The notes: generated from the letters alone by a model not told the origin. A stretch of DNA of 64,000 nt from Saprospiraceae bacterium (GCA_044224705.1 JBGAJY010000005.1:2220-66219), one strand, 5' to 3'; shown: positions 5,409-23,632, numbered from the stretch's first letter. Program-made: numbers and translations.

Positions 5409-5579
5409 CCATCGCGGCGTGTGCTTCGGGTTATTGAAAACTGAAAATATAAATCCGTTCCGTCTGCGAACGAAAGGTTTTATCTGTAGTAATCGGCGGG
5501 AATGCAAAACAAAAATTACCCGCGTGATTTGTAGGTAGATTGTTGATAAATTCTACCTTGCAGTATAAAACCAAATTAT

Positions 5580-8500
5580 ATGACCCTGCCACCTGATTTT
5601 TATACTTTCCCGGATGGCCGGGAGAGAATCGGCCGTGAAATAGCCCAAAGGCTCAGTTTCAATCGAAACAAGTCGACGGCCGAATCAACAAAGACAGACA
5701 AATCTGTTATTGAAGTTTTATTCATCGGAGAAATATTCAAGGAAGACCTGTTTTACTCCTGGGTGGATCGGTTGCCGGACTCGATACAAAAGGTTCGTGT
5801 AACCACTATTTTTAATAAATATTCCTTCTACAGCCATGGCAAGGTAGTGCACCCTTCGGAACGGGTTATTGAAATAAATCAAGAGATAATAGAAGGTTAT
5901 TTAGACGATGATAATTTTTTTAAACAGCTCCCCTTCTCCCATTTCGACCTGATCGTTTGCTGTTTTGAATTGCACTTCTGTTTGAATTGGCGGTGGGCGC
6001 TGTTTAAGCTGCTTGAACGATTGAAAGAAGGAGGCAGTTTTCTTTTTGTCGACATTACTGAAGACTTCGAATTTTTTGACGGGAATTTTAAGAATAAGAA
6101 TTCCGATGTCAGGTTCCTCGACAAAGGGTCGGATCTCCTGCCTTTGGACGCGTTCAAGCGTTTTATGATGAAGTTCGATGAATTAAGATCGGAATATTTC
6201 TACTGGAAACCAGCCATCAGTACTTCTAATTACCAGGTTCTGGCCGAACAGATCGACCCGTTTTTCCAGGAAGTTCAGCGATTGGGGGATGAAGATATTA
6301 CCGAGGAAAAAAGCAGGCGATTCAGAAATACAGCGACTTACGAGCTCAGTATAGAACAGGTTCTGGACTGGCTGAAAACCAAGGCAGACAACAAAGTCCC
6401 GCTGAGTTATCTTCGAATGGGACTGTCTTATGACAACAGGATTAAGATCGCCTATGATTTGGAAGACTGGATGAAGCAAAATCCGGACATGCGCGGAAAG
6501 GAAAAGGTGACCTTTAAAATTGAAAAGGGCCTCCGGGTTTACCTGGCTTCCGGGCTGATTACCGAAAAATTGATGGGTTTCAACGGCTGGAGCTACAAGT
6601 CATTCCCGAAGGATATTCAATCCATCAACGACAGCAATATTGGTTCGTTGGCCAGGAAGGCTCTGGACCTGATGATCAGTCACGGCTTTTTCATACCTGA
6701 CCGCACATTATATGCTGCTGTCCTGTCGTGGCAGGATGACCATGAAGGATGGGATTATCCGATACACCTGATTCTCAATGAAAAACTCAATTATGAAGAA
6801 GACCCTGAACGTAACTTCATCGGCCGAACGGTACAATCATCCCAATTGGCAGACCGGAGGATGCGCAGCCGGTTTGCGAGGTTAATTTTGCTGGAGAAAA
6901 AACAAAAATATTCCGGACTGAAATCATTGTTTAAAACGTTGCCTTATAAATTCCAGGTCGTCATCCGGCTCTCCAAACATCCGGAATTGGAATATAAGGC
7001 TGATAAATTTGCCCTAATCGAGGACGAGGGATTGGTGCCGCAAAACGCCATACGCTACAGGTTAAACTTTGACTCAAAGAACCAAATCAAGCGCTTAACC
7101 ATACTGCTGCACTCGGATTTTAATGCTGTCAGGGAAAATAAGGTTGACCTGAAGGGTTACGAGGAGAAATTAAACCAGCCAGGACCGTTTGAAGACCTGA
7201 TATCTGTACCCATAAAGCCCGGATTATTACGGCGTTATGTGATCACCGACCAGTTTGCGGATTTTGTAAAATCCTTCGATGGCGGAGAAAGTGAGAACGT
7301 GGAGTCGGAATTGATTGGAAAACCCATTCTTTATCAGGATAATGACGATAGGCAGCGCCTTATGCAGGCTTTGCGGCTCGATGAAAATGGGTTCGAGCAA
7401 TTGTTGCGTGCGTTGGATGTGATCAAAAAATTCCAGTTGCGCGAGCCAGGTTTCCAGCTGTCCCTGTTCCCTTCGGGGGTCATTCAGCAGAAATCCGATC
7501 TGGTGAAAGGATTAGGCGGCATCCTGATCTATGAAAAGACAGATCCGCTTGCCCTGGGCACGGAAAGCGACGAGGAACAGGCCTACCTGGAATTGATTTT
7601 TTCCCGCAATCGCGCCATTGTGGAGGCTAACAACCTCATTTTTTACAAGGTGGGTATAGTGAACGCTCACCAGCACAATTTTAAAAAACTGGCTTTGCAG
7701 GCTGCAATTGCCAACGTTTTTGCGCGTAATGGCTCTCACGGGTTGGGAAGTCACGTGTTACCGGCGGTGGCTGCACTGGCTACTTCTTCCTTAAAGGATG
7801 ACCAGATACTGTTCAGTTATATCCAGCAACGACTGGATTTTATCGCACAGGCTACTGCGGGTTTCCCCAGATGGACGTATCCATCCTGGCTCATTAAAGA
7901 TGTCTTATCCCGGTATTTCAAACAAAAACACCTGCTGAGCAATCTTGCAGCCTCCGAAAACCTCGGAGCATTCGAATACGATAATGGTGAGCAATATAGT
8001 AAAATACAATTTGTGATCCGGAAACGGCAGATGATCCCACTGGGTGCGGATGAGGATATTCCCAAGGAAGAAGACTGGAACCACTTTGCGGCAAAAAAAA
8101 TGCTGGATGACAAATTGGAAAATACAGTTTATGCCACGCTGGAAGATAAATTCTATGGAATAGTTGTCAGGATGACCTTAGCCGAATCGGGCGAGGTCAA
8201 CTATGGCGCGGTAGATATATTGTTTCATAATTCCGCTATCACCTGTCTGCTGACCAAACCTGCAGAAAAAATTTACCAGCCAGGCGACCGGCTTTTGATC
8301 CAGGGAACGCTGCACCGGGATCTTTCGGACCCCGACCACCCCAAATACTGGTTTAATGACGGCCGGATCATTGCCGAAAGTAAAATTACAGAATTGATAG
8401 ATGAGAAAGGAGGAGGCGTGTTGAGCGAAGATGTCCAGGTTGCAATTCCGGGAGGAATCGTTGGCTACCAGGCTTTCTATTCTATTCTCGAGAATGCTAT

Positions 8501-10964
8501 TCGCAACGCAGCCAAACACAATTGGACAAAATTACTGCACCCGCCTTCGAATCTGATTCTCACTATTGAAATAGATGAGCGCCAAAACCAGCACTACCAT
8601 ATCTGCCGGATATGGACGAACTCCACCAACATGTTGGCGAAGGATGGACTATGGTCTCCGAGGCCTGATTTCGGTTTTACGCAGGAGCAAATACTGGATC
8701 CGGAAAAAGGGCCCAATATTTTGAGCCAAAACCTGAATAAATTCATTGCTGAGAACCTTATAGATAGGGATGGAAGAATGTCGAGAAACAATCTGGGTAT
8801 GGCTGAAATGAAAATCGCAGCCGGATTCCTGTACAAATACGGGCTCTTGGCTATCGGCTCTCTGGACGAAAAAAATCCAGCCCTGTTACACCGGACAAAG
8901 CCGGAATACGGCATTTTCAGGGCTTCCGATATATGGGAAAGAGACGGGAATGAGTTGATTCCCAGATTGGGGTTTAGGTTTAAATTGCTCAAACCGCGGG
9001 AAATCGTTTTTATCACAAACGATAGCCTTCTTGCAAGCAGCATGCAAATCCCTTCGGTGACCTTCGCCGATCTGCCTCGTGAAATTGAGTCAGGTAACCT
9101 CGATTATGAATTCTGCTTGTTACATCTTCGTCTGGAGGACCAGCAATCATCTACCCATCCTCTACTTTCGGATACAAGCCGTAATTTCCTGGGCACATTG
9201 TTCGCTTACCTTATCGAAGTCTTTGGCGGCACTACCGATGACCGCGACCCTGTCGGGACGGATCATCCAGGTGAAATAAAAGTAAGCAACCTCCAGAAAC
9301 TGATGGAGTTTATAGAAGATTACCCTTATCGGTTGATTCTTGTTTATCCCAAAGAGCGCCTTGCTGATTACATAGCGCCGCTTATTGAAAAAATTTATCT
9401 GGGACAAAGTACACGCGAAAACAAGGAGAATACAATCCTTCGGTTCCGGGAGTTTGAAGCCTGGATACAAGGGATGTCTATGAAAACCGATCTCGTGTCT
9501 GCCGAAATGCGAAAAAAGCTGCGTTTTATACAAAAACGAATTTACTGGTGGGACGATGAGTCATTCCGACAGGCCTGTGCCCAAAAAGGAACGGATGGCC
9601 TGACTTCAACGGAGATGTTCAAATTAAGGGTATACCGAACCTGGGTCAAATTATTCGAGGGCAAGGGCTGGAAATATCAATTGTCTGTAATCAACGAGGA
9701 CAAAAGCGACACTTCGGATATGAACATCTTTCAAATGTTTAAAAATGAAAGAACAGCGCTTGTCGAATTGGTTATCGCTTGCCTGGAGCAACAGCGTGCA
9801 TTGTCAAATAATTCCACCTCCTTGTCCGGTAAGCAGAAAATGCAAATCAGGGAGAAACTATCCGGAAACCTGCCCGGTGGCGAAAATAAAATCCGGTCTT
9901 TTTTGGGGGCATGGCTAGACATGATAAAGGAGGACTACCCGTTTGAAAAAAAGAATAGCGTGGTCAGCATTTTATATGACTACCTCGAGGATCGGATCAA
10001 GCATTTGTCCAGATCGGTTTCGACGGTGCCAATCTGCCTCCGACCCGGAAATAAGCCTTTTGATGAGAAATTCTTTGGCAAGGACATCAAATGGGATGAG
10101 GATATGCTCGAATCTGGCCGCCAATATTCTTCGGATCGGATAAAAACAATCTGCTATAAAAGGCATAGTTCGGAAGACAAGGGAAGTCATGTGTACTTTG
10201 AGCACCTGACGGGCAGTAAAATATCCTATGCATTATTCCAGCATTTGCCGGAATCGACCTACCTGAAGCGGAAATTTCAGATGCAGCTGGTTGAAAATGC
10301 CCTGATGACCGTACTCATTTTGGATGAGCGCATCCTGCATTTTGTCAACGATGAAGAATTTCGAAATGCAACCTATTTCAACCAGGTCAATATTGCTATC
10401 GTGCGGTATATCACAAAAGGCAATCAGACTGTTTTCCCTCAAAAAAGCGCGGTTGAATTTAAAAACGACAGCCAGAAGAAACTTGTTGATATCTACATAC
10501 AGGTTAAAAAAAGAGAAGACCACAAACGAAACAGGCCTGAAGGCAGGAATACCAAGTCCAGGAAGCCGCGTTTGCGGACCGACCATCTGCACACCGAGCC
10601 TGTCGATCTGGATCACTTTCATTTGTTTTTTGAATTGCCTGAAAATACCTTGATGCCGGGCAGCGATAACGACAAATTCCGTATTTCAACCATCATTCTG
10701 CACCATACTTTGCTGGAGAGCCTGTGCGAAAAGGATAAAACCCAAATGGATAATTTTATCAATGCGCTGAAATTGCAAATTCCAAGTGTCATGATCACTT
10801 CCGGGCGCGGAAGGCCTCAAAACTTGCCCGAGCTGGCTCGTTATCTCCCTTTTTCGCACCTGGAAAGCCATTTGCTCCAAAAATACCCGGACAAGTTGCT
10901 GTTCAGCCAGGCTATTTTCAAGGCTTTGCATTGGAAATGGTACCACGAAACCCACGAAAGTTAA
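5580..10964 (+). CDS. Island gene A: giant 1794-aa multidomain protein of unknown function (degenerate class-I methyltransferase-like N-terminus, histidine-kinase-like H-box/N-box core, pseudo-receiver-like C-terminus)
   Basis: Uninterrupted 5.4-kb ORF. aa ~40-165: 'VIEVLFIGEI...FDLIVCCFELHFCLNWRWALFKLLERLKEGGSFLFVD', a Rossmann MTase pattern without GxGxG. aa 713-727: 'FARNGSHGLGSHVLP' (compare HisKA FxxNxSHELRTPL). aa 969-981: 'ILENAIRNAAKHN' (HK-type N-box), followed by 'NNLGMAEMKIAAGFL' and 'GFRFKLLKP'. No canonical DxGxG G1 box and no Walker A. aa ~1576-1794: 'VLILDER..IILHHT..VMITSGRG..YLPF'. Sampled 60-nt lines hand-count to ~38-42% GC. Confidence refers to the region being coding, not to function. 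Confidence 0.85.
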   Translation: MTLPPDFYTFPDGRERIGREIAQRLSFNRNKSTAESTKTDKSVIEVLFIGEIFKEDLFYSWVDRLPDSIQKVRVTTIFNKYSFYSHGKVVHPSERVIEINQEIIEGYLDDDNFFKQLPFSHFDLIVCCFELHFCLNWRWALFKLLERLKEGGSFLFVDITEDFEFFDGNFKNKNSDVRFLDKGSDLLPLDAFKRFMMKFDELRSEYFYWKPAISTSNYQVLAEQIDPFFQEVQRLGDEDITEEKSRRFRNTATYELSIEQVLDWLKTKADNKVPLSYLRMGLSYDNRIKIAYDLEDWMKQNPDMRGKEKVTFKIEKGLRVYLASGLITEKLMGFNGWSYKSFPKDIQSINDSNIGSLARKALDLMISHGFFIPDRTLYAAVLSWQDDHEGWDYPIHLILNEKLNYEEDPERNFIGRTVQSSQLADRRMRSRFARLILLEKKQKYSGLKSLFKTLPYKFQVVIRLSKHPELEYKADKFALIEDEGLVPQNAIRYRLNFDSKNQIKRLTILLHSDFNAVRENKVDLKGYEEKLNQPGPFEDLISVPIKPGLLRRYVITDQFADFVKSFDGGESENVESELIGKPILYQDNDDRQRLMQALRLDENGFEQLLRALDVIKKFQLREPGFQLSLFPSGVIQQKSDLVKGLGGILIYEKTDPLALGTESDEEQAYLELIFSRNRAIVEANNLIFYKVGIVNAHQHNFKKLALQAAIANVFARNGSHGLGSHVLPAVAALATSSLKDDQILFSYIQQRLDFIAQATAGFPRWTYPSWLIKDVLSRYFKQKHLLSNLAASENLGAFEYDNGEQYSKIQFVIRKRQMIPLGADEDIPKEEDWNHFAAKKMLDDKLENTVYATLEDKFYGIVVRMTLAESGEVNYGAVDILFHNSAITCLLTKPAEKIYQPGDRLLIQGTLHRDLSDPDHPKYWFNDGRIIAESKITELIDEKGGGVLSEDVQVAIPGGIVGYQAFYSILENAIRNAAKHNWTKLLHPPSNLILTIEIDERQNQHYHICRIWTNSTNMLAKDGLWSPRPDFGFTQEQILDPEKGPNILSQNLNKFIAENLIDRDGRMSRNNLGMAEMKIAAGFLYKYGLLAIGSLDEKNPALLHRTKPEYGIFRASDIWERDGNELIPRLGFRFKLLKPREIVFITNDSLLASSMQIPSVTFADLPREIESGNLDYEFCLLHLRLEDQQSSTHPLLSDTSRNFLGTLFAYLIEVFGGTTDDRDPVGTDHPGEIKVSNLQKLMEFIEDYPYRLILVYPKERLADYIAPLIEKIYLGQSTRENKENTILRFREFEAWIQGMSMKTDLVSAEMRKKLRFIQKRIYWWDDESFRQACAQKGTDGLTSTEMFKLRVYRTWVKLFEGKGWKYQLSVINEDKSDTSDMNIFQMFKNERTALVELVIACLEQQRALSNNSTSLSGKQKMQIREKLSGNLPGGENKIRSFLGAWLDMIKEDYPFEKKNSVVSILYDYLEDRIKHLSRSVSTVPICLRPGNKPFDEKFFGKDIKWDEDMLESGRQYSSDRIKTICYKRHSSEDKGSHVYFEHLTGSKISYALFQHLPESTYLKRKFQMQLVENALMTVLILDERILHFVNDEEFRNATYFNQVNIAIVRYITKGNQTVFPQKSAVEFKNDSQKKLVDIYIQVKKREDHKRNRPEGRNTKSRKPRLRTDHLHTEPVDLDHFHLFFELPENTLMPGSDNDKFRISTIILHHTLLESLCEKDKTQMDNFINALKLQIPSVMITSGRGRPQNLPELARYLPFSHLESHLLQKYPDKLLFSQAIFKALHWKWYHETHES

Positions 10965-10971
10965 TCACACG

Positions 10972-11685
10972 ATGTTGCAGCCAGTGTACCTTCTGATCTC
11001 ACGGATTACATCAAGTGCCGAAAAACTGGAAAGCTTTGGAGACTTCTACTCGAACTGGACGCCCGGCAACGACTGGAAAATGCCATGGATCGACCAGCTC
11101 GGCCTTCACAAAGCGGAACACAGCGCATGGCTGGATGGCGTTATGTTGCCGGCTATACCCGAACTGGCTTCCCTTTGGGAAACTATATTAACAACCGGCG
11201 ACGAAAATATCCCGGCCAACTGGTTTGAAGCGTCAGCGTTCGCGCAGTTTTTAGTCAAATTGAGGTCGCACCTCGGAAAAGTACCGGATGATGCAACACC
11301 TGTGCTCCGCGTGCTTGTCCATTTCGGAAATACCGTGAGCCACGTAAAAAAATTCTACAAGCCCCGCCTGCTCCAATATCTGGAGCATCATAATCTGGCT
11401 GGCAGCGTCGAGATATTTCCCTATTCAACAGGTGAAAACTTCGACGGTATCCTATTGAGAGGCAGCGAATTCAATACAAGGCAGGGCGAAGCTGAGCTGA
11501 TTCAAAGCCTGGATGCGGAAATCGGCCGTCTGCTGGAGCATTCTTTCTTTCAGGAAATCAATCAGGAAATGGAAGAAAAAGTAAAAAAACGATTCTTGAA
11601 ACTGGTTTCGGACAAAGCCTCTCCTTCCGATTTGAAAAAAATTCTCAATAGAATCGAGCAGCGCCACAAACGCAAAATCAACTGA
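10972..11685 (+). CDS. Island gene B: 237-aa hypothetical protein, no recognisable motif
   Basis: ATG lies 7 nt after the gene A stop. No signal peptide or TM segment. C-terminus is helical and charged (EEKVKKRFLKLV...RHKRKIN). Confidence 0.7.
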   Translation: MLQPVYLLISRITSSAEKLESFGDFYSNWTPGNDWKMPWIDQLGLHKAEHSAWLDGVMLPAIPELASLWETILTTGDENIPANWFEASAFAQFLVKLRSHLGKVPDDATPVLRVLVHFGNTVSHVKKFYKPRLLQYLEHHNLAGSVEIFPYSTGENFDGILLRGSEFNTRQGEAELIQSLDAEIGRLLEHSFFQEINQEMEEKVKKRFLKLVSDKASPSDLKKILNRIEQRHKRKIN

Positions 11686-11689
11686 TCCG

Positions 11690-13450
11690 ATGAGCGCCCT
11701 TCTTTACCACGTACAACCGCTCCTGAGCACCAATGCCGCAGAAAACTATCTGGGCATTGCAGGAAGTCCGACTGATGAGAACCTGAAAGAAGTTGCGGCG
11801 GAGATCAGCAGACGCCTCAAAGAAGACGGCAGGTTTGAGCCCAACGCTGATGCCCCGCAGATTGTGCTTTTGCTGGCCCCCGCTGGCGATATCAGGAAAG
11901 AAGTAATCGATGCCCTGGCTGAAAAAACCCGGGAACGTGTCATACAAGCGATTGAAAGTAAGCCGGGCAAGGGTGCCGCAGCCGAAAATTCCCGGCATCT
12001 TGTCCCTGTGCTGACCGTAGGTTTGATCGACTGGATGGACGACTACAGGCCGAGGATAAAAAACGGAAAAAATACCATTCAAAATTTGTCCATGGGCAAC
12101 CCTTATGCCCGGCATGGCGATTTCGACCCGCGCTACCGGTTTTTGAACAGTAATATCTGGTTTCGGTACGCTCCTGTCATATTTCCCAAAAACGCCCCTG
12201 ATAATGACGGGCTGGATGCAGTGCGCTACGCCTTGAAAGAGGTTTCGAGGTTTTACAGAGAAGGCGCCTACGACACCAAAGTCGCCCATGAGTTCCTGGA
12301 ACTGCAGTTGCGCCTTTTGCTGCAATCCCACCTACGGGTTGGCAGCACCCATTCCAAGGTGGTTCCTTTTGCATTTTATTCGGATACTATCCTCTACAGC
12401 GAAGCATTAAAAGAACTGCGGTACCTCGAAGGCATCAAATGGAGAATTCTCATCGTAGACGACCAGGCGGAGGAGGCTATTGAACGCCTGGAAACTACTT
12501 GTCCTTCGCCTGAAAACGCCATCCAGTCAGAAGGCCAGCCGGACGCGATGAGCAAAAGACAGTTCGTTCAAAAACACCTGGAAGCTATCGTTCAAGACGC
12601 GAATGGGACTACCCGCGAGATTCAATCCGACAACTTTCTATGGTGTTGTCGATCCACGCTGGCCGAAGGGTTCGAGGCCGTTGTCAACCAGCCGGAAATT
12701 CATTATGATGTGATTATGCTGGATTACTTTTTTAAAGGGGAAAGATCTGGCCGGCAAAATCAGAGCGGCTTCAGCGACGACAAATCCGGGGAGCAATTAA
12801 TCGCGGAAATCGTTCAGCAGTTGCGAAAAAAAGACACCGACAGCCGGCAACTCCTGGGGCCCTTGAACAAACTTTTCTTTTTTTCCATATCCGCGTACGG
12901 ATCCGCCCTTGAAGAAAAACTGCAGCATCTCGCCATCCCGCAAAACGATCGAAAGTGGCTTTTTTCGCAGGGCGGGCACCCGATCTGTACGCCTTATTTG
13001 TTCCTGTTCCGGTTCTTTTCCCTGCTCCGGCAACAGGTGGAGGAAGTGGCGGAAATCGACTTGTCCAAGGCGGGCAGCGCACCCCAGTCCAAACTGGCCA
13101 TTCTGCTAAAAAAACTCACTTCCGATGGAAACTTTGACCCCCAAAAAGCCCTGGATCTGTTTCCCTCTTTTGTTGAACTGGGCGCAACTTTTAAAAGACT
13201 TTCCAATTTCAGGAAACAAAGTGTATTTGCCGACTCTGCCCTGAACCGGTACTTTTTTGGATTAACCATCGAACATTGGAACAGGTTGCAGCACCTGATT
13301 TATCTGCTGACCTACGGCACGGAACAGGAATACTGGGAAATGCGTGAAGAGTGGAAACACCTGAACCAGCTGGCCGAATTCAGCGCCGGCAACAACCACG
13401 CTTTGAATGTCATCGGCACATACATAGCCGATCTAAATATACGATCATGA
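11690..13450 (+). CDS. Island gene C: 586-aa protein with a central receiver (CheY/REC)-like domain
   Basis: ATG lies 4 nt after the gene B stop. aa ~250-440 follow the REC pattern: 'RILIVDDQ' (D257, D258), 'YDVIMLDYFF' (D345), 'LFFFSISAYGS', 'WLFSQGGHP'. The flanking N- and C-terminal regions have no recognisable motif. Confidence 0.8.
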   Translation: MSALLYHVQPLLSTNAAENYLGIAGSPTDENLKEVAAEISRRLKEDGRFEPNADAPQIVLLLAPAGDIRKEVIDALAEKTRERVIQAIESKPGKGAAAENSRHLVPVLTVGLIDWMDDYRPRIKNGKNTIQNLSMGNPYARHGDFDPRYRFLNSNIWFRYAPVIFPKNAPDNDGLDAVRYALKEVSRFYREGAYDTKVAHEFLELQLRLLLQSHLRVGSTHSKVVPFAFYSDTILYSEALKELRYLEGIKWRILIVDDQAEEAIERLETTCPSPENAIQSEGQPDAMSKRQFVQKHLEAIVQDANGTTREIQSDNFLWCCRSTLAEGFEAVVNQPEIHYDVIMLDYFFKGERSGRQNQSGFSDDKSGEQLIAEIVQQLRKKDTDSRQLLGPLNKLFFFSISAYGSALEEKLQHLAIPQNDRKWLFSQGGHPICTPYLFLFRFFSLLRQQVEEVAEIDLSKAGSAPQSKLAILLKKLTSDGNFDPQKALDLFPSFVELGATFKRLSNFRKQSVFADSALNRYFFGLTIEHWNRLQHLIYLLTYGTEQEYWEMREEWKHLNQLAEFSAGNNHALNVIGTYIADLNIRS

Positions 13451-15612
13451 ACACTGGGTACTGGTTTTTTCCCGATACAGTTATCCTTTCCGAATCCAGA
13501 CATTCTGTGTTTCGCTACAAGCGCGTGTCGATAACGGAAGAACATTCGACCAGCCTGGATTTTCCGGTCTATGTCGCTCTCGAACCCGACCAGATCAGGT
13601 TTTTTTTCGATGGCAACGAGCCTGGAAACAACAGGCACCATCATTACTGTGTATTGTCTTTGCCGTTGAAGCGACCGGAAGAAGTAGAAAGCAACCTCGC
13701 GTCGGCTTTGCGGGAAGAAATACGCGTTGACCCGGAATCGTACCGCCACATCCTGCCCGGGGATGCAGATCAAACCCAATCCTATTCGTATCTCCACAAT
13801 ACCCTGCCGACCAATGCATACCCTGTAACACACCAGTTGTTTCAGACAAAGATGGGCTCCTGGCAACAGGAAACCCTGCCCATTTGGGTGCTGCTGCTCG
13901 ATTTTTTGTTCGACCTCCGGCATTCGACAGTATTTCAGCGTTATCCGGCCTTCAATGAACTGCTCAATACACTGGAGGCCGATCCCTTGCTGCATGCCCT
14001 GCTGAAAAAATGCGAGTACTACTACTGCCAACTGCGCTATCAGGAAGACAAAACGGCCTGGAATAATGCCGATAATACCTTCAAACCATTCAAATCAAAA
14101 TTGTTGCACGCCAGTTCCAACGAACTTCAGGAGGCTGAGAAAAAGTGGCTGCATTTTATTCTTCGCGATCAGGATAACCACCCTCCCGAATTCGGAGAAG
14201 GATGGCTCTATCCGTCGGAACAGGAGCTGAGGGCTGTGCTGTTCAATGATGATATACATAAAAAGCATATTTTCGATCGCAGCATAATTAAACGCGTTTG
14301 TAATAAATGGCCTCCTCAAAACAAGAAAGTGTTCTGGCGCAGCGAATGGATAGTAGATCACATGAACCTGGTGTCAAATGGCGAAGAGCAAATTCATCCT
14401 CGGCAAACCAGGGAAGAAGTCTACCGGTTTTTCATCAGTCGGTTCGGCCTGTTTGCCGCTTGGCGGTTTTTTGTTTTGAACCTGAGTTGGGGCTGGATTT
14501 TTTATGTGTTGCTTATAGCGCTGATTGTATTGGAGGTTTGGTTTGGTCTGAACGATGAACTATTTGGTCTTTTTGCCTTGCCAGGTGCGTTTTTTGGACT
14601 TCTTATTCCGTTTGTTGCCTTTGTTCGGGTGGTTGCCCGTTATGCTTTTAAGTTAGCGCGCCGCATTTTGAACTGGATTGAACCCGGGATTATCCGTGAT
14701 TGGAAACAAGCCGAATCTTACAGCTTCGCCCTCGCATTGCCCAACCTGACACTGGGCATACTGGGCGGCTGGTTCGCTTTGATGCCATTTGCCGAGGAGG
14801 CCTGGGCTTTGAACCTCAGCGTTTCGGACACTGCTGTCACGATCGGATTTATAGGGCTGATGTCATTTTCGTTAATGGTAATTTTCAACACAATCAAGAC
14901 GTTAGTGCCCACGCTTCCCGGGTTCATTTCAGTGATACGAAGTTCAAGCGTACTGTTTGCCGGAATCAGTTTTTCACTTTGTTGCGGGTTAGGTACAATG
15001 GGCTTGCTGGGGCAAAGTGTATTCAACGACCCGCTCAAGTTTCTGCCGCATGAAAGACAGGCGGACAAATTGAACGATTTGAATGCAATGAAGGACAGTA
15101 TTTATTCGGTGATATTCATGCTCGAGGAGATGAAAGACTATTTGCACTCCCAACCGGATTCCATTCAGGCGGCAATATGCGAAACCGCTATTCAAGACGC
15201 GGATAACGAGGTTTGTTCACTGTACGCCAAATTCCTGCCACAGGAAAATCATTTTTGTGGCGGATTGGCACCCGCCATCAATAAATACTGGAATGATGCA
15301 AAAACCTCTGCAAATCCTGACTCAACGCTCTGTTTATGCATCTATACCTGTAAGCAGACATGGGATGCAGCATACGATCGGCAGAGAAAAGTTTATGCCC
15401 ATGATTTGATCCGTTCATTAGAAGAGCAGGAATCGTTCTGGCTTTGCCCCAACAGTCTCGATTGCCTCCATTTCCCGGTAAGGGGCAACAACCACAACCA
15501 CTGTATTTTCTTCTTCCCCCGCCTCCTCCTGATTTATTCCGCCATCACGTTTTTCATCGGCTTCTTCATACAGGTGACCATCCAACGGCTGGGCTACAAC
15601 CAACCGGTCTGA
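13447..15612 (+). CDS. Island gene D: 721-aa polytopic membrane protein with a Cys-rich loop
   Basis: ATG 13447 overlaps the gene C stop (ATGA at 13447-13450). About 330-aa soluble N-terminus. At least 6 hydrophobic helices (e.g. WGWIFYVLLIALIVLEVWF, LFALPGAFFGLLIPFVAFV, LTLGILGGWFALMPF, VTIGFIGLMSFSLMVIF, VLFAGISFSLCCGLGTMGLLG). A ~150-aa loop with 10 Cys, then a final helix LLLIYSAITFFIGFFIQV. The track start 13351 is an in-frame extension inside gene C. Confidence 0.8.
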   Translation: MNTGYWFFPDTVILSESRHSVFRYKRVSITEEHSTSLDFPVYVALEPDQIRFFFDGNEPGNNRHHHYCVLSLPLKRPEEVESNLASALREEIRVDPESYRHILPGDADQTQSYSYLHNTLPTNAYPVTHQLFQTKMGSWQQETLPIWVLLLDFLFDLRHSTVFQRYPAFNELLNTLEADPLLHALLKKCEYYYCQLRYQEDKTAWNNADNTFKPFKSKLLHASSNELQEAEKKWLHFILRDQDNHPPEFGEGWLYPSEQELRAVLFNDDIHKKHIFDRSIIKRVCNKWPPQNKKVFWRSEWIVDHMNLVSNGEEQIHPRQTREEVYRFFISRFGLFAAWRFFVLNLSWGWIFYVLLIALIVLEVWFGLNDELFGLFALPGAFFGLLIPFVAFVRVVARYAFKLARRILNWIEPGIIRDWKQAESYSFALALPNLTLGILGGWFALMPFAEEAWALNLSVSDTAVTIGFIGLMSFSLMVIFNTIKTLVPTLPGFISVIRSSSVLFAGISFSLCCGLGTMGLLGQSVFNDPLKFLPHERQADKLNDLNAMKDSIYSVIFMLEEMKDYLHSQPDSIQAAICETAIQDADNEVCSLYAKFLPQENHFCGGLAPAINKYWNDAKTSANPDSTLCLCIYTCKQTWDAAYDRQRKVYAHDLIRSLEEQESFWLCPNSLDCLHFPVRGNNHNHCIFFFPRLLLIYSAITFFIGFFIQVTIQRLGYNQPV

Positions 15613-15621
15613 TAAGAAAAA

Positions 15622-15655
15622 CGGCTGGGCTAGGGTTTGATCCCCGACCCAGCCG
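15622..15655. terminator. Stem-loop between convergent genes (island gene D / phosphohexomutase)
   Basis: CGGCTGGG (15622-15629) pairs with CCCAGCCG (15648-15655) around an 18-nt loop. It lies 10 nt after the gene D stop and 25 nt after the convergent gene's stop. The T-tract is weak. Confidence 0.5.
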
Positions 15656-15679
15656 CTCAAAAATTATTTCCTGTGCCCA

Positions 15680-17080
15680 CTAAAGTATCGTCTCCTTCGT
15701 CGCATCCAGCATTCGCCTGCACTCCGCCAGATCGCCCGACTGGGCATACACCCGCAGTACCGGTTCGGTGCCCGATGCACGGATCATGACCCATTTTTCG
15801 TCGCCAAAGACGAACTTCCAACCGTCGAGATCTTCCACGCTCTGGATTTTGTACGAGCCGAAAGCCTTGTAGGAACGGCTGTTGCAGGCGGCGATCACAG
15901 CCTGTTTCTGCGCTTCGGTGATGTGCAGGTCGTCGCGGTCGAAGGCGAATTTGCCGACTTCCTTGTACACTTCTTCTACGAGACCTTTTACTGTTTTCCC
16001 GGTTTTGGCCATGAATTCGAGCACCAAGAGGCCGATCCACACGCCGTCGCGTTCCGGAATGTGCCCTTTGACGGCCAGGCCGCCGGATTCTTCACCGCCC
16101 ACGATCACGTCTTCCTTGGTCATGATTTCGGCAATGTACTTGAAGCCGACTTTCGTGATCTCGTATGGGAGGCCGAATTTTTCAGCCATTTTTTTCAGTT
16201 TGTCGGTCACCGAGAAGGTGAAAACGACTTTGCCGCGCAGGTTTTTGTATTTGTACAGATACAGCAGCAGGATGAGCAGCAGGTGGTGGCTGTCCACAAA
16301 ATTGCCGTCTTCATCGTACATCCCGATGCGGTCGGCATCGCCGTCGGTGGCGAGGCCTGCCGTGATTTTGGGATTCTTTTTAACGGTATCGCTGAGCAGC
16401 GTCAGGTTGCGGTGGATGGGCTCGGGCGCCTGGCCGTGCATTCCCGGGTTTTCGTCGCAATGCAGGAAAATGGAGCGGGGCAGGAGTTTGCGCACGGCGC
16501 GCTGGCCGGCGCCGTACATGGCATCGTAGGCGAGGCGTCCGGCGCTTTGTTTGATGGCGCTCAGGTCGAAGTTCTTCTTCGCATGGCGCAGGTACATGGT
16601 TTCGAGGTCGGCGTCGGCGAAGAGTTTTTTCTGCGTCAGTTCGCCCAGGGTGGGCAGTGATTTCAGCGAGCACGCTTCGGGAATAAGTTTTTCCACCTCG
16701 GCAATGTCGGCGGGTATCATCGGGCCGCCGTAAGAGGCTTTGAGTTTGAAGCCGTTGTAGGAAGGCGGGTTGTGGCTGGCCGTGATCACGATGCCGAGGT
16801 CCGCTTTGAGTTTCACGACACCCAGAGAAACCATCGGAGTGGATACGAAGCCCACTCCGGCGTGCACTTTGATGCCGTAGGCGCCGAGTACGCGGGCAGT
16901 TGCGCTGACGAACAAATTGCCGCCGAAACGGTAGTCATGACCGATAACGGCCTTTTTCATTTTGCGTGCTTTCATGAACAAGGCGGTCGCCTCGGCCACG
17001 CGCATCACATTCTCCACCGTGTAATCGTCGGCGATGATGGCACGCCAGCCGTCCGTGCCGAATTTGATCGGAATTGCCAT
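15680..17080 (-). CDS. Alpha-D-phosphohexomutase (phosphoglucomutase/phosphomannomutase family)
   Basis: Active-site 'ITASHNPPSYNGFK', metal loop 'ATDGDADRIG' and sugar loop 'GGEESGG'. 466 aa. Confidence 0.88.
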   Translation of the reverse strand: MAIPIKFGTDGWRAIIADDYTVENVMRVAEATALFMKARKMKKAVIGHDYRFGGNLFVSATARVLGAYGIKVHAGVGFVSTPMVSLGVVKLKADLGIVITASHNPPSYNGFKLKASYGGPMIPADIAEVEKLIPEACSLKSLPTLGELTQKKLFADADLETMYLRHAKKNFDLSAIKQSAGRLAYDAMYGAGQRAVRKLLPRSIFLHCDENPGMHGQAPEPIHRNLTLLSDTVKKNPKITAGLATDGDADRIGMYDEDGNFVDSHHLLLILLLYLYKYKNLRGKVVFTFSVTDKLKKMAEKFGLPYEITKVGFKYIAEIMTKEDVIVGGEESGGLAVKGHIPERDGVWIGLLVLEFMAKTGKTVKGLVEEVYKEVGKFAFDRDDLHITEAQKQAVIAACNSRSYKAFGSYKIQSVEDLDGWKFVFGDEKWVMIRASGTEPVLRVYAQSGDLAECRRMLDATKETIL

Positions 17081-23556: not shown

Positions 23557-23632
23557 GGCTCCGTAGCTTAATGGATAGAGCATCTGACTACGGATCAGAA
23601 GGTTAGAGGTTCGAGTCCTCTCGGAGTCACCA
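23557..23632 (+). tRNA. tRNA-Arg (anticodon ACG), CCA encoded
   Basis: Manual cloverleaf. Acceptor GGCTCCG/CGGAGTC (one G-U pair). D-arm GCTT..GAGC. Anticodon stem TCTGA/TCAGA with loop C-T-ACG-G-A. T-arm AGAGG-TTCGAGT-CCTCT. Discriminator A followed by CCA. Confidence 0.92.

Follow-up and report, generated by a model that had tools for sequence, protein, structure and literature searches.

To our knowledge, Detocs is the only two-component system known to be used directly as an immune system. In its description (bioRxiv 10.1101/2023.01.24.525353), Detocs is presented as a defensive two-component system, DtcA-DtcB-DtcC, for which the detection rule needs all three profiles and in which the effectors vary, including purine nucleoside phosphorylase (PNP), endonuclease and transmembrane types. 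Here, we describe a four-gene cassette found in a 64,000-nucleotide (nt) stretch of a Saprospiraceae bacterium metagenome-assembled genome (MAG) (GCA_044224705.1, JBGAJY010000005.1:2220-66219). The full 64-kb stretch is referred to as the window, coordinates are counted from its first letter unless a locus is named, and the four open reading frames (ORFs) of the cassette are labelled A, B, C and D in order. At a confidence just short of even, we read the cassette as a horizontally acquired switch derived from a two-component system, with A as the sensor, C as the adaptor, D as the membrane effector and B as an accessory.

An inserted four-gene operon

The cassette is flanked by a dapA-like gene and a convergent phosphohexomutase gene. 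In a species-level genome collection, the best matches of the DapA-like protein were found in Saprospiraceae MAGs, with 85-87% identity. In the three closest relatives (loci L006, L007 and L008; 90% identity for the mutase and 85-87% for the DapA-like protein), the dapA-like gene and the convergent mutase gene are adjacent, 84 to ~370 bp apart, and the 84-bp spacer of L007 corresponds to window positions 5430-5442 at its left end and to those from 15617 at its right end. Since the flanks are adjacent in all three relatives and the spacer aligns on both sides, the block from ~5443 to 15616 is an insertion. None of the 80 Bacteroidota loci that were compared encodes homologs of A, B, C or D. The block is best explained as a self-contained, horizontally acquired cassette. 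Horizontal acquisition had been proposed in a first-pass annotation made from the sequence alone, which had also called for a comparison with relatives at the dapA-like/phosphohexomutase junction and for an analysis of windowed composition; the empty sites in the three relatives (by which the block is not a vertical core), the 0/80 Bacteroidota loci with a homolog and the atypical composition described below all bear the proposal out. The features of the locus are:

5443-15616, plus strand: inserted block of ~10.17 kb, comprising the leader and genes A to D, delimited by the empty-site alignment with L006/L007/L008
5443-5579, plus strand: AT-rich leader upstream of A, island-borne part, 35.8% guanine plus cytosine (GC)
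5580-10964, plus strand: gene A (ORF), 1794 amino acids (aa), a cytoplasmic giant with a predicted divergent histidine-kinase-like core
10972-11685, plus strand: gene B, 237 aa, a small orphan protein in the position of the small gene after A
11690-13450, plus strand: gene C, 586 aa, a putative receiver-like adaptor, from its homologs P0007/P0008 and the C-like family
13447-15612, plus strand: gene D, 721 aa, a polytopic membrane protein, from hydropathy and the D-like family
15622-15655, no strand: stem-loop, an ancestral convergent terminator outside the insert, from alignment to the stem-loop in the L007 spacer

The four ORFs are encoded on the same strand as a tightly packed operon, with a 7-nt gap between A and B, a 4-nt gap between B and C, and the ATG of D at 13447 overlapping the stop codon of C as ATGA; these junctions and coordinates reproduce exactly those given in the first-pass annotation. 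The 721-aa form of D is also the form in the public protein collection. The whole upstream leader (5409-5579; 171 nt) has a GC content of 39%, in agreement with its earlier description as AT-rich, and a scan of this leader for promoter motifs found neither a TAnnTTTG motif (Bacteroidota-type) nor a sigma-70-like site.

The GC content is 45.3% for gene A, 48.0% for B, 50.7% for C and 47.7% for D, and 46.8% for the block as a whole, as compared to 61.6% for the DapA-like gene, 56.8% for the phosphohexomutase gene and 56.5% for the window outside the block. The GC content at third codon positions is 53-59% in the block genes versus 66-78% in the flanking genes, and the block departs from the window background by a tetranucleotide distance of 0.32-0.375, versus 0.11-0.17 elsewhere; GC and tetranucleotide deviation both set the block apart. 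The contrast with the flanks that had been noticed from hand counts of GC is therefore real, but the hand-counted values were a few points too extreme, with 45-51% measured in the genes. The stem-loop at 15622-15655 is present and folds stably (-21.8 kcal/mol, z = -3.4). It aligns with a stem-loop at the corresponding place in the L007 spacer, indicating that this terminator is ancestral, was shared by the dapA-like and mutase genes and now also ends the inserted operon; its earlier assignment to the island does not stand. Two further MAG assemblies and three assemblies of read sets reproduce the left junction and the A-B-C-D order with a protein identity of 99.8-100%, which argues against an assembly artefact.

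Among the island hallmarks looked for, an empty site and an atypical composition were found; an integrase, a tRNA target and flanking repeats were not. The only Rfam/ARAGORN match in the window, tRNA-Arg(ACG) at 23557-23632, is 8 kb away and does not mark the integration site of the insert, and no convincing terminal inverted or direct repeats were found at the insert edges. The 9-mer CAAAAATTA, previously pointed out as a direct repeat, does sit at both proposed edges (5510 and 15658), but it is not an insertion scar. The window contains six copies (3757, 5510, 15658, 33196 on the minus strand, 50582, and 59658 on the minus strand; at least three of them intergenic) versus 1.05 expected, and 0/100 shuffles reached six. 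As copies are found at unrelated sites too and the right copy is located outside the insert, beyond the ancestral terminator, the 9-mer was rejected as a target-site duplication; it may instead serve the host as a regulatory motif or accompany terminators, with no tie to the island.

The giant protein A and its partners

None of the four proteins could be placed in a named family, as the first-pass annotation had held: searches of Pfam, NCBIfam, PADLOC and PDB sequences all stayed below threshold, and the PADLOC scan it had suggested, run on A to D at E <= 0.1, gave no match. Neither A, nor C, nor a 30-row A-family profile matched any PDB sequence, even at E <= 10, and word-indexed homology searches with A alone and with a 42-row profile found only A itself and one relative. 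The possibility that A is an orphan was nevertheless rejected, since an exhaustive HMMER search with residues 595-1794 of A against 1.84 billion cluster representatives (50% identity clusters) identified relatives missed by the word-indexed search, i.e., at least 2000 representatives at E <= 0.001, including 858 at E <= 1e-10 and 311 at E <= 1e-30. Among the 150 best matches listed, lengths range from ~760 to 2230 aa. The modules at A 680-830 and A 930-1200 are found in 149/149 retrieved relatives and the module at A 1540-1794 in 148/149; the N-terminal region of A is common to only 18/149. In most members the hairpin and ATPase modules adjoin each other, with a family median of 42 aa between them; in the long members nearest A the gap widens, to ~250-520 aa in the 11 that were listed. 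No transmembrane segments were found in A by hydropathy. The parts of A, C and D referred to below are:

5580-7649, plus strand: N-terminal extension of A, 690 aa, specific to its clade, including the region of residues 90-169
5847-6086, plus strand: A residues 90-169, Rossmann region resembling class-I methyltransferases, in which the S-adenosylmethionine (SAM) loop is degenerate
7656-7859, plus strand: A residues 693-760, predicted helical hairpin resembling the dimerization and histidine phosphotransfer (DHp) domain, with the H720 codon at 7737-7739
7875-8450, plus strand: A residues 766-957, beta-rich insert of the A clade that separates the hairpin from the ATPase domain
8451-9125, plus strand: A residues 958-1182, predicted histidine-kinase-type catalytic (GHKL) domain, with the Thr1013 codon at 8616-8618
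10137-10961, plus strand: A residues 1520-1794, conserved C-terminal domain of alpha/beta type, in 148/149 relatives
11987-12424, plus strand: C residues 100-245, conserved N-module
12434-13039, plus strand: C residues 249-450, putative REC-like region with D257, D258, D345 (12722-12724) and S399/S401
13447-14466, plus strand: D residues 1-340, N-terminal soluble domain, from hydropathy
14494-15006, plus strand: D residues 350-520, transmembrane cluster, from hydropathy
15502-15558, plus strand: D residues 686-704, C-terminal transmembrane segment, from hydropathy

The core of A appears to be a highly diverged histidine kinase. A model of residues 680-1200 that AlphaFold built from 51 rows (mean predicted local distance difference test score (pLDDT) of 81.8, predicted template-modelling score of 0.84) contains, in order, a helical hairpin, a beta-rich region and an alpha/beta domain. 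The hairpin helices (segment residues 14-53 and 59-81) have a pLDDT above 90, and H720 (segment residue 41) is located in the middle of the first helix. In a Foldseek search against the PDB, the best matches of this core were almost all histidine kinases (WalK/YycG, ThkA, CheA P4, CusS, HK853, DivL and BceS); the catalytic domain was matched with a probability of 0.9-0.99 over ~190 aligned columns, and three HK853 alignments of ~460 columns covered both DHp and the catalytic and ATP-binding (CA) domain, with target-normalised template-modelling scores of 0.42-0.48. The E-values were modest (1e-3 to 2e-2), suggesting fold-level similarity rather than close homology. Aspartyl- and lysyl-tRNA synthetases also recurred among the matches; these probably stem from the beta-rich insert, and a relative of A, P0010, has a weak tRNA_anti-like (OB-fold) Pfam match in the region equivalent to this insert. 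Neither A nor its segments matched Pfam HisKA-type or HATPase_c models at the gathering threshold. When 30 A-family members were scanned one by one against Pfam, HATPase_c was matched by nine, all below threshold (best E 0.0015), and every other family by one. Judged from the model, the core thus combines a DHp-like hairpin carrying His720 with an ATP-binding domain of the histidine kinase type.

Conservation in the family follows the same outline. In the hairpin, R716, S719, H720 and G723 are invariant (consensus RNGSHxxGSH), as are, in the ATPase domain, the N-box residues E971, R975, N976, K979 and H980 and, in a G2-like motif, G1073 and E1076. H720 and N976 had been singled out in the first-pass annotation before any relatives were known, and both are invariant across the recovered family. 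In GHKL ATPases, the Asp of the G1 box contacts adenine. At this position, at the end of the strand after the N-box helix, most of the family reads 'IWDN' and A has T1013 (RIWTNST). Of the features that define a histidine kinase, A therefore shows the DHp hairpin with a conserved His and the Bergerat-fold CA domain with the N-box Asn, and does not show the G1-box Asp.

Outside this core, the C-terminal module of A contains the invariant residues D1582, H1708 and T1740-x-G-R-G-x-P, with E1583 and R1584 in at least 90% of members and K1772 conserved. It has no match among PDB sequences and was rejected as a receiver (hhalign probability 0.8%). In the N-terminal extension, residues 90-169 have sub-threshold matches to four related Pfam class-I methyltransferase families (best 20.5 bits versus a cut-off of 30). 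In the subfamily of A, the Gly-rich SAM loop of this region is absent (it reads 'ILY[IV]G..') and the motifs NWR and LDGNF are conserved. The N-terminus was therefore not accepted as a class-I SAM methyltransferase, and this region is more likely to be a sensor domain than an enzyme. The N-terminal extension is unrelated to the companion families f1, f5, f7, f13, f14 and f16, which include a periplasmic-type binding protein (f1). With regard to the remnants of two-component chemistry that had been seen earlier in these proteins, the core of A with its H-box-like and N-box motifs is upheld by the model, the fold search and the HATPase_c matches, the receiver-like fold in A is not upheld, and the one in C is upheld more weakly, as described next.

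C has homologs P0007 and P0008, at 28% identity, and profile iteration over the fetched loci identified a C-like family in 12 loci. After the N-module, C-like proteins carry the motifs 'WR.LLVDD' (acidic pair), 'FD.I.LDYLL' (acceptor, D345 in C) and 'FWIFPISAF' (Ser/Thr), which are in the order expected for a receiver, and C itself keeps D257/D258, D345 and S399/S401 in receiver register. D345 is another of the residues picked out beforehand; the acceptor position is Asp in 8/12 C-like proteins (C and seven others) and Asn in those of L171, L173, L175 and L105. Response_reg gave weak sub-threshold matches in 3/10 C-like members (best E 0.0048) and none in C. An hhalign comparison of the C-like family with the genuine REC domains of the same loci gave an E-value of ~0.002 in the correct register, with a probability of only 14-15%. 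C may thus be described as weakly receiver-like on the basis of these alignments. Following the REC-like region, C ends in a helical tail of 136 aa.

In D, five hydrophobic segments exceed the hydropathy threshold. Four of seven D-family members match the PADLOC model Mem_01 with a best E of 7.8e-8; the model describes a globular domain at the N-terminus and six transmembrane segments. D itself does not match, and no assignment of Mem_01 to a system was found in the literature searched. A separate observation concerns the D-like gene of the closest relative of A, which is available from two sister MAGs (L171:18877-22125 and L172:18877-22119). The two 25.8-kb loci are 99.65% identical, and 56/69 mismatches and all 15 indels fall inside this gene, concentrated in a patch of ~400 nt (gene positions ~1500-1900, membrane-spanning) that is ~80% identical by eye and contains a frameshift in L172. 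This patch could reflect local mosaicism or hypervariability, or inactivation of a putative effector; alternatively, it could be due to the assembly of a strain mixture.

B has no family match in Pfam, NCBIfam or PADLOC and no Response_reg signal. Its relatives are found in conspecific assemblies only, and no relation was found to families f5, f7, f8 and f10, to positional equivalents or to the N-terminal extension of fused C-like proteins. In 34/35 loci, the gene that follows the A-like gene is on the same strand within 60 nt, and it is often small and fast-evolving. Judged from these comparisons, B appears to be a fast-evolving, lineage-specific small accessory protein that shares only its position with its counterparts.

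Recurrence in other genomes and competing explanations

A-like and C-like genes are found together in 12 independent loci, 7 of which also have a D-like gene, downstream of the C-like one. The GC content of these loci ranges from 29 to 50%, and the identities of the co-occurring proteins to A, C and D are 25-30%. Recurrence in 12 loci at this level of divergence indicates that A, C and D represent a conserved functional module, and the co-occurrence outside this genome that the first-pass annotation had looked to was thereby found. The loci include:

L171/L172 (P0009), 50% GC: A-like, C-like with an N-terminal extension, D-like with 11-12 transmembrane segments
L173/L174 (P0010), 34% GC: A-like, C-like with an N-terminal extension, D-like with 11-12 transmembrane segments
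L175 (P0011), 29% GC: A-like, two small ORFs, C-like, D-like
L177 (P0017), 41% GC: A-like, C-like (cut by the contig end)
L088-090, L103, L119 and L159: A-like followed by C-like, with D-like too except in L159

Most A-family genes are part of a larger conserved cluster of 10-12 genes on the same strand (e.g., L103:3384-20225). Clustering of the neighbours of 79 metagenomic A-like loci (L091-L169) gave a canonical order that starts with a gene for a small REC protein, two Liv-type permease genes, two genes for ATP-binding cassette (ABC) ATPases and a gene for a Peripla_BP_6 binding protein (f1), sometimes followed by a gene for a radical-SAM or QueD-like enzyme, and continues with the A-like gene, f5, f7, a gene for an NtrC-type regulator (REC-sigma54-AAA+-HTH) and a variable large gene. 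REC-containing genes, encoding NtrC-type regulators or stand-alone receivers, are present in 24/33 loci longer than 12 kb. The presence of genuine receiver partners beside most A-like genes suggests a real kinase-receiver relationship for the family.

Among the variable large genes are those for C-like proteins, for a 620-aa family (f6) and for the f11 family of ~1090 aa. The adenosine deaminase domain at the C-terminus of f11 (L146:13507-16773) matches the PADLOC model CARF_ADA with 281 bits (E 7e-84) versus 167 bits for housekeeping deaminase models. In L105:15517-18984, which encodes a protein of ~1155 aa, an adenosine deaminase is fused to a C-like, receiver-like module with an Asn acceptor, and in P0007 and P0008 the C-like module is fused to leucine-rich repeats and CHAT/caspase-like domains. 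Effectors are thus swapped among the relatives of the cassette. CHAT, deaminase and membrane outputs that can be exchanged for one another are a typical feature of conflict systems.

Some further neighbours were seen in individual loci. Genes for QueD-like (6-carboxytetrahydropterin synthase family) and radical-SAM enzymes are located directly upstream of some A-like genes (L146:7992-8501, L088:8784-10013 and L113:5582-6814); the radical-SAM genes have weak viperin/MoaA-like matches, and such neighbours hint at a small molecule derived from a nucleotide or pterin. Genes associated with conflict are also located near some of the related operons: a BrxL-like Lon protease homolog is found upstream of the P0158 locus (L088:2546-4132), and Peptidase_C14 (caspase-like) genes adjoin the operons of L173 (23036-25417) and L086 (12862-16416).

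If the cassette is a switch of the kind proposed here, the N-terminal 690 aa of A (with the Rossmann/methyltransferase-like region, its dead SAM loop and further domains) would be the likely sensor, and a cue would change the state of A. A would then autophosphorylate on His720 and pass the phosphoryl group to Asp345 of C, its cognate partner, in which a conserved docking module would precede the receiver-like domain that holds the acceptor D345; relatives with Asn at the acceptor position would signal by docking alone. Activated C would switch on D, which is Mem_01-like with a cytoplasmic N-terminal domain, and D would alter the membrane, leading to growth arrest or abortive infection. His720, the N-box residue Asn976, Asp345 of C, the acidic pair and the Ser are all present here, which makes phosphotransfer from His720 to Asp345 the most likely coupling; the role of D as the effector is likewise a deduction. 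A role in conflict or defence is plausible but unproven, and we favour it because the block is an insertion with a patchy distribution, because effectors are swapped among relatives and because the D family matches Mem_01. Moreover, the outcomes that the first-pass annotation had set against its own proposal were not observed: the block is not a vertical core, profile searches placed its genes neither in a housekeeping pathway nor in a named defence system, and the genes do co-occur elsewhere.

A number of observations weigh against this reading. In the wider family, the binding protein gene f1 is found upstream of the A-like gene in 36/39 loci with enough upstream flank, and a Liv-type ABC transporter and NtrC-type regulators are encoded beside most A-family genes; such a combination of transporter, binding protein and NtrC-type regulator is typical of nutrient or solute signalling. 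No member of the A family was found in 72,556 plasmids or 50,697 phages; 2.9 million viral contigs gave a single match, on a contig that shows no viral features. At this locus, the cassette is not within a defence island, no integrase or transposase gene was found within the insert, and none of A to D has a match at threshold in Pfam, NCBIfam, PADLOC or PDB sequences, with no PADLOC system called. With regard to the catalytic residues, Thr at the G1 position is shared by most of the closest relatives of A, no conserved beta5 Lys is evident in the C-like alignment, the acceptor is Asn in 3/5 C-like partners in the own clade of A (L171, L173 and L175), and a structure model of C from four alignment rows reached a pLDDT of 32.

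The neighbourhood would be equally well explained if the cassette were an ordinary, non-immune signalling or transport module. A would then be a cytoplasmic sensor kinase from a large environmental family whose usual partners are a solute-binding protein, an ABC transporter and an NtrC-type regulator; in the reduced version seen here, it would control D, a permease- or channel-like protein, via C and thereby adjust uptake, export or the envelope as a niche-adaptive accessory trait. In addition to the upstream f1 with the Liv-type permease and ATPase genes and the chromosomal location of the family, the HTH_8-containing sigma-54 activators within the same operons as the A-like genes, the transporter-like D-like relatives with 11-12 transmembrane segments and the position of this insert between genes of sugar and amino-acid metabolism are all consistent with such a role. 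The A-C-D subtype represented here, however, comes without the transporter, the binding protein and the DNA-binding regulator, the C-like module is elsewhere fused to a CHAT protease or an adenosine deaminase, which are typical cell-killing or immune outputs, the D family matches a model in a defence-system library, and presence and absence are patchy among close relatives. A niche-adaptive role in signalling or transport is a serious rival that we judge possible, at well below even confidence.

The residues at the catalytic positions raise a different explanation, in which A would be a GHKL-fold scaffold that binds nucleoside triphosphates, perhaps with changed nucleotide specificity, C would be a docking or nucleotide-responsive protein, and the two, as pseudo-kinase and pseudo-receiver, would act on D through contacts only. 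According to the literature, some conflict systems contain receivers that may not depend on kinases for their action (PMC8195603), and pseudo-receivers are common (PMC12632262), which would fit the Asn that replaces the acceptor Asp in the C-like proteins of L171, L173, L175 and L105 and the lack of an evident beta5 Lys. Taken together, the Asn acceptors and the missing Lys mean that phosphotransfer cannot be universal. The Thr in place of the G1 Asp, which also fits a pseudo-switch, represents a conserved, clade-specific change rather than random decay, and combined with the Asn acceptors in sister loci it suggests that the clade is drifting towards, or already using, phosphorylation-independent signalling. 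For the cassette itself we nonetheless consider this explanation unlikely, as the whole A family has His720, Asn976 and the G2-like motif unchanged, C keeps D257, D258, D345 and the Ser, and most of the A family has the canonical G1 Asp with genuine REC partners next door. Finally, the source is a MAG, the right junction was seen only on this contig and B has no homologs beyond conspecific assemblies, but a non-functional remnant of a transfer or an assembly chimera is highly improbable given four long intact ORFs with coupled junctions, the retention of all family-invariant residues in A and the near-identical left junction and gene order in the other assemblies and read sets.

The reading of the cassette as a sensor-adaptor-effector switch can be widened. 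It is possible, if doubtful, that the cassette is the minimal member of a large unrecognised class of immune or conflict systems that are derived from two-component systems, are built on this non-canonical histidine-kinase family and have swappable outputs (a Mem_01-like membrane protein, a CHAT protease or a deaminase closest to CARF_ADA); the full form would couple the solute-binding protein, the ABC transporter and the sigma-54 regulators to these outputs, so that defence or altruistic death would be gated by an extracellular or metabolic signal. The kind of system is already known, i.e., two-component signalling coupled to an effector; literature searches found no published description of the A family or of its neighbourhood. 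If the reading is true, a very large histidine-kinase-like family, which has a His motif of its own and an additional conserved domain at the C-terminus and shows lineage-specific changes in the nucleotide site, has been missed by all curated domain and defence-system libraries, and immunity of the Detocs type would extend to a broader, evolutionarily independent group with different outputs. The four-gene version, which has neither a transporter nor a transcription factor, would be the simplest one to clone and test, and the D/N and D/T polymorphisms at catalytic positions could serve as a natural series for the transition from a phosphorelay to a phosphorylation-independent switch.

Comparison with known systems

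Like Detocs, the cassette is a compact same-strand operon in which a cytoplasmic protein resembling a sensor kinase, with a large N-terminal sensor region, is joined by a receiver-containing partner that would control the output, and effectors are modular in both; in the relatives of the cassette they include a membrane protein, CHAT and an adenosine deaminase. The first-pass annotation had concluded that the four genes do not fit Detocs, and every Detocs criterion tested came out negative. No DtcA, DtcB or DtcC match was obtained in the PADLOC scan of A to D at E <= 0.1. The cassette has no stand-alone receiver to act as a 'buffer' in the manner of DtcB, as B shows no receiver signal, although the relative in L119 does have a stand-alone REC. 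Whereas DtcC fuses the receiver to the effector, D is a separate gene here and C ends in its 136-aa helical tail. The kinase core of A is too divergent for the HisKA and HATPase_c models, carries Thr at G1 and is accompanied by an extra conserved C-terminal domain.

A shares with classical histidine kinases (WalK/YycG, HK853 and CusS) a His in the first hairpin helix, the predicted Bergerat fold, the N-box Asn and a G2-like motif, and most A-family members have REC or NtrC-type partners next to them. In contrast to these kinases, A falls below every curated threshold, has a His motif (RNGSHxxGSH) that is not a known H-box and lacks a membrane anchor; its clade has the beta-rich insert of ~190 aa between hairpin and CA domain and Thr in place of the G1 Asp, and the A family consists of giants (1000-2200 aa) with a shared C-terminal DER/HQG/TSGRG domain. 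Similarly, the acidic pair, the acceptor Asp and the Ser/Thr of the following strand are ordered and spaced in C as in the receivers of response regulators. C differs from these receivers in that a long insertion separates its first strand from the acceptor strand, that the N-module of ~150 aa precedes the domain, that no conserved Lys is evident and that the acceptor is Asn in several C-like relatives.

Among the models for effectors, D has the same overall architecture as PADLOC Mem_01, which 4/7 members of its family match and D itself does not. The f11 deaminase found in relatives is closest to the CARF_ADA model and thus resembles Cad1, the CARF-adenosine deaminase of type III CRISPR systems; in this case, the window encodes no deaminase and the sensor part in the relatives, where it is recognised, is C-like rather than CARF, so that the likeness to Cad1 is relevant only as evidence of effector swapping in relatives. 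By analogy, the cassette would work like a phosphorelay of the Detocs type without being a member of that family.

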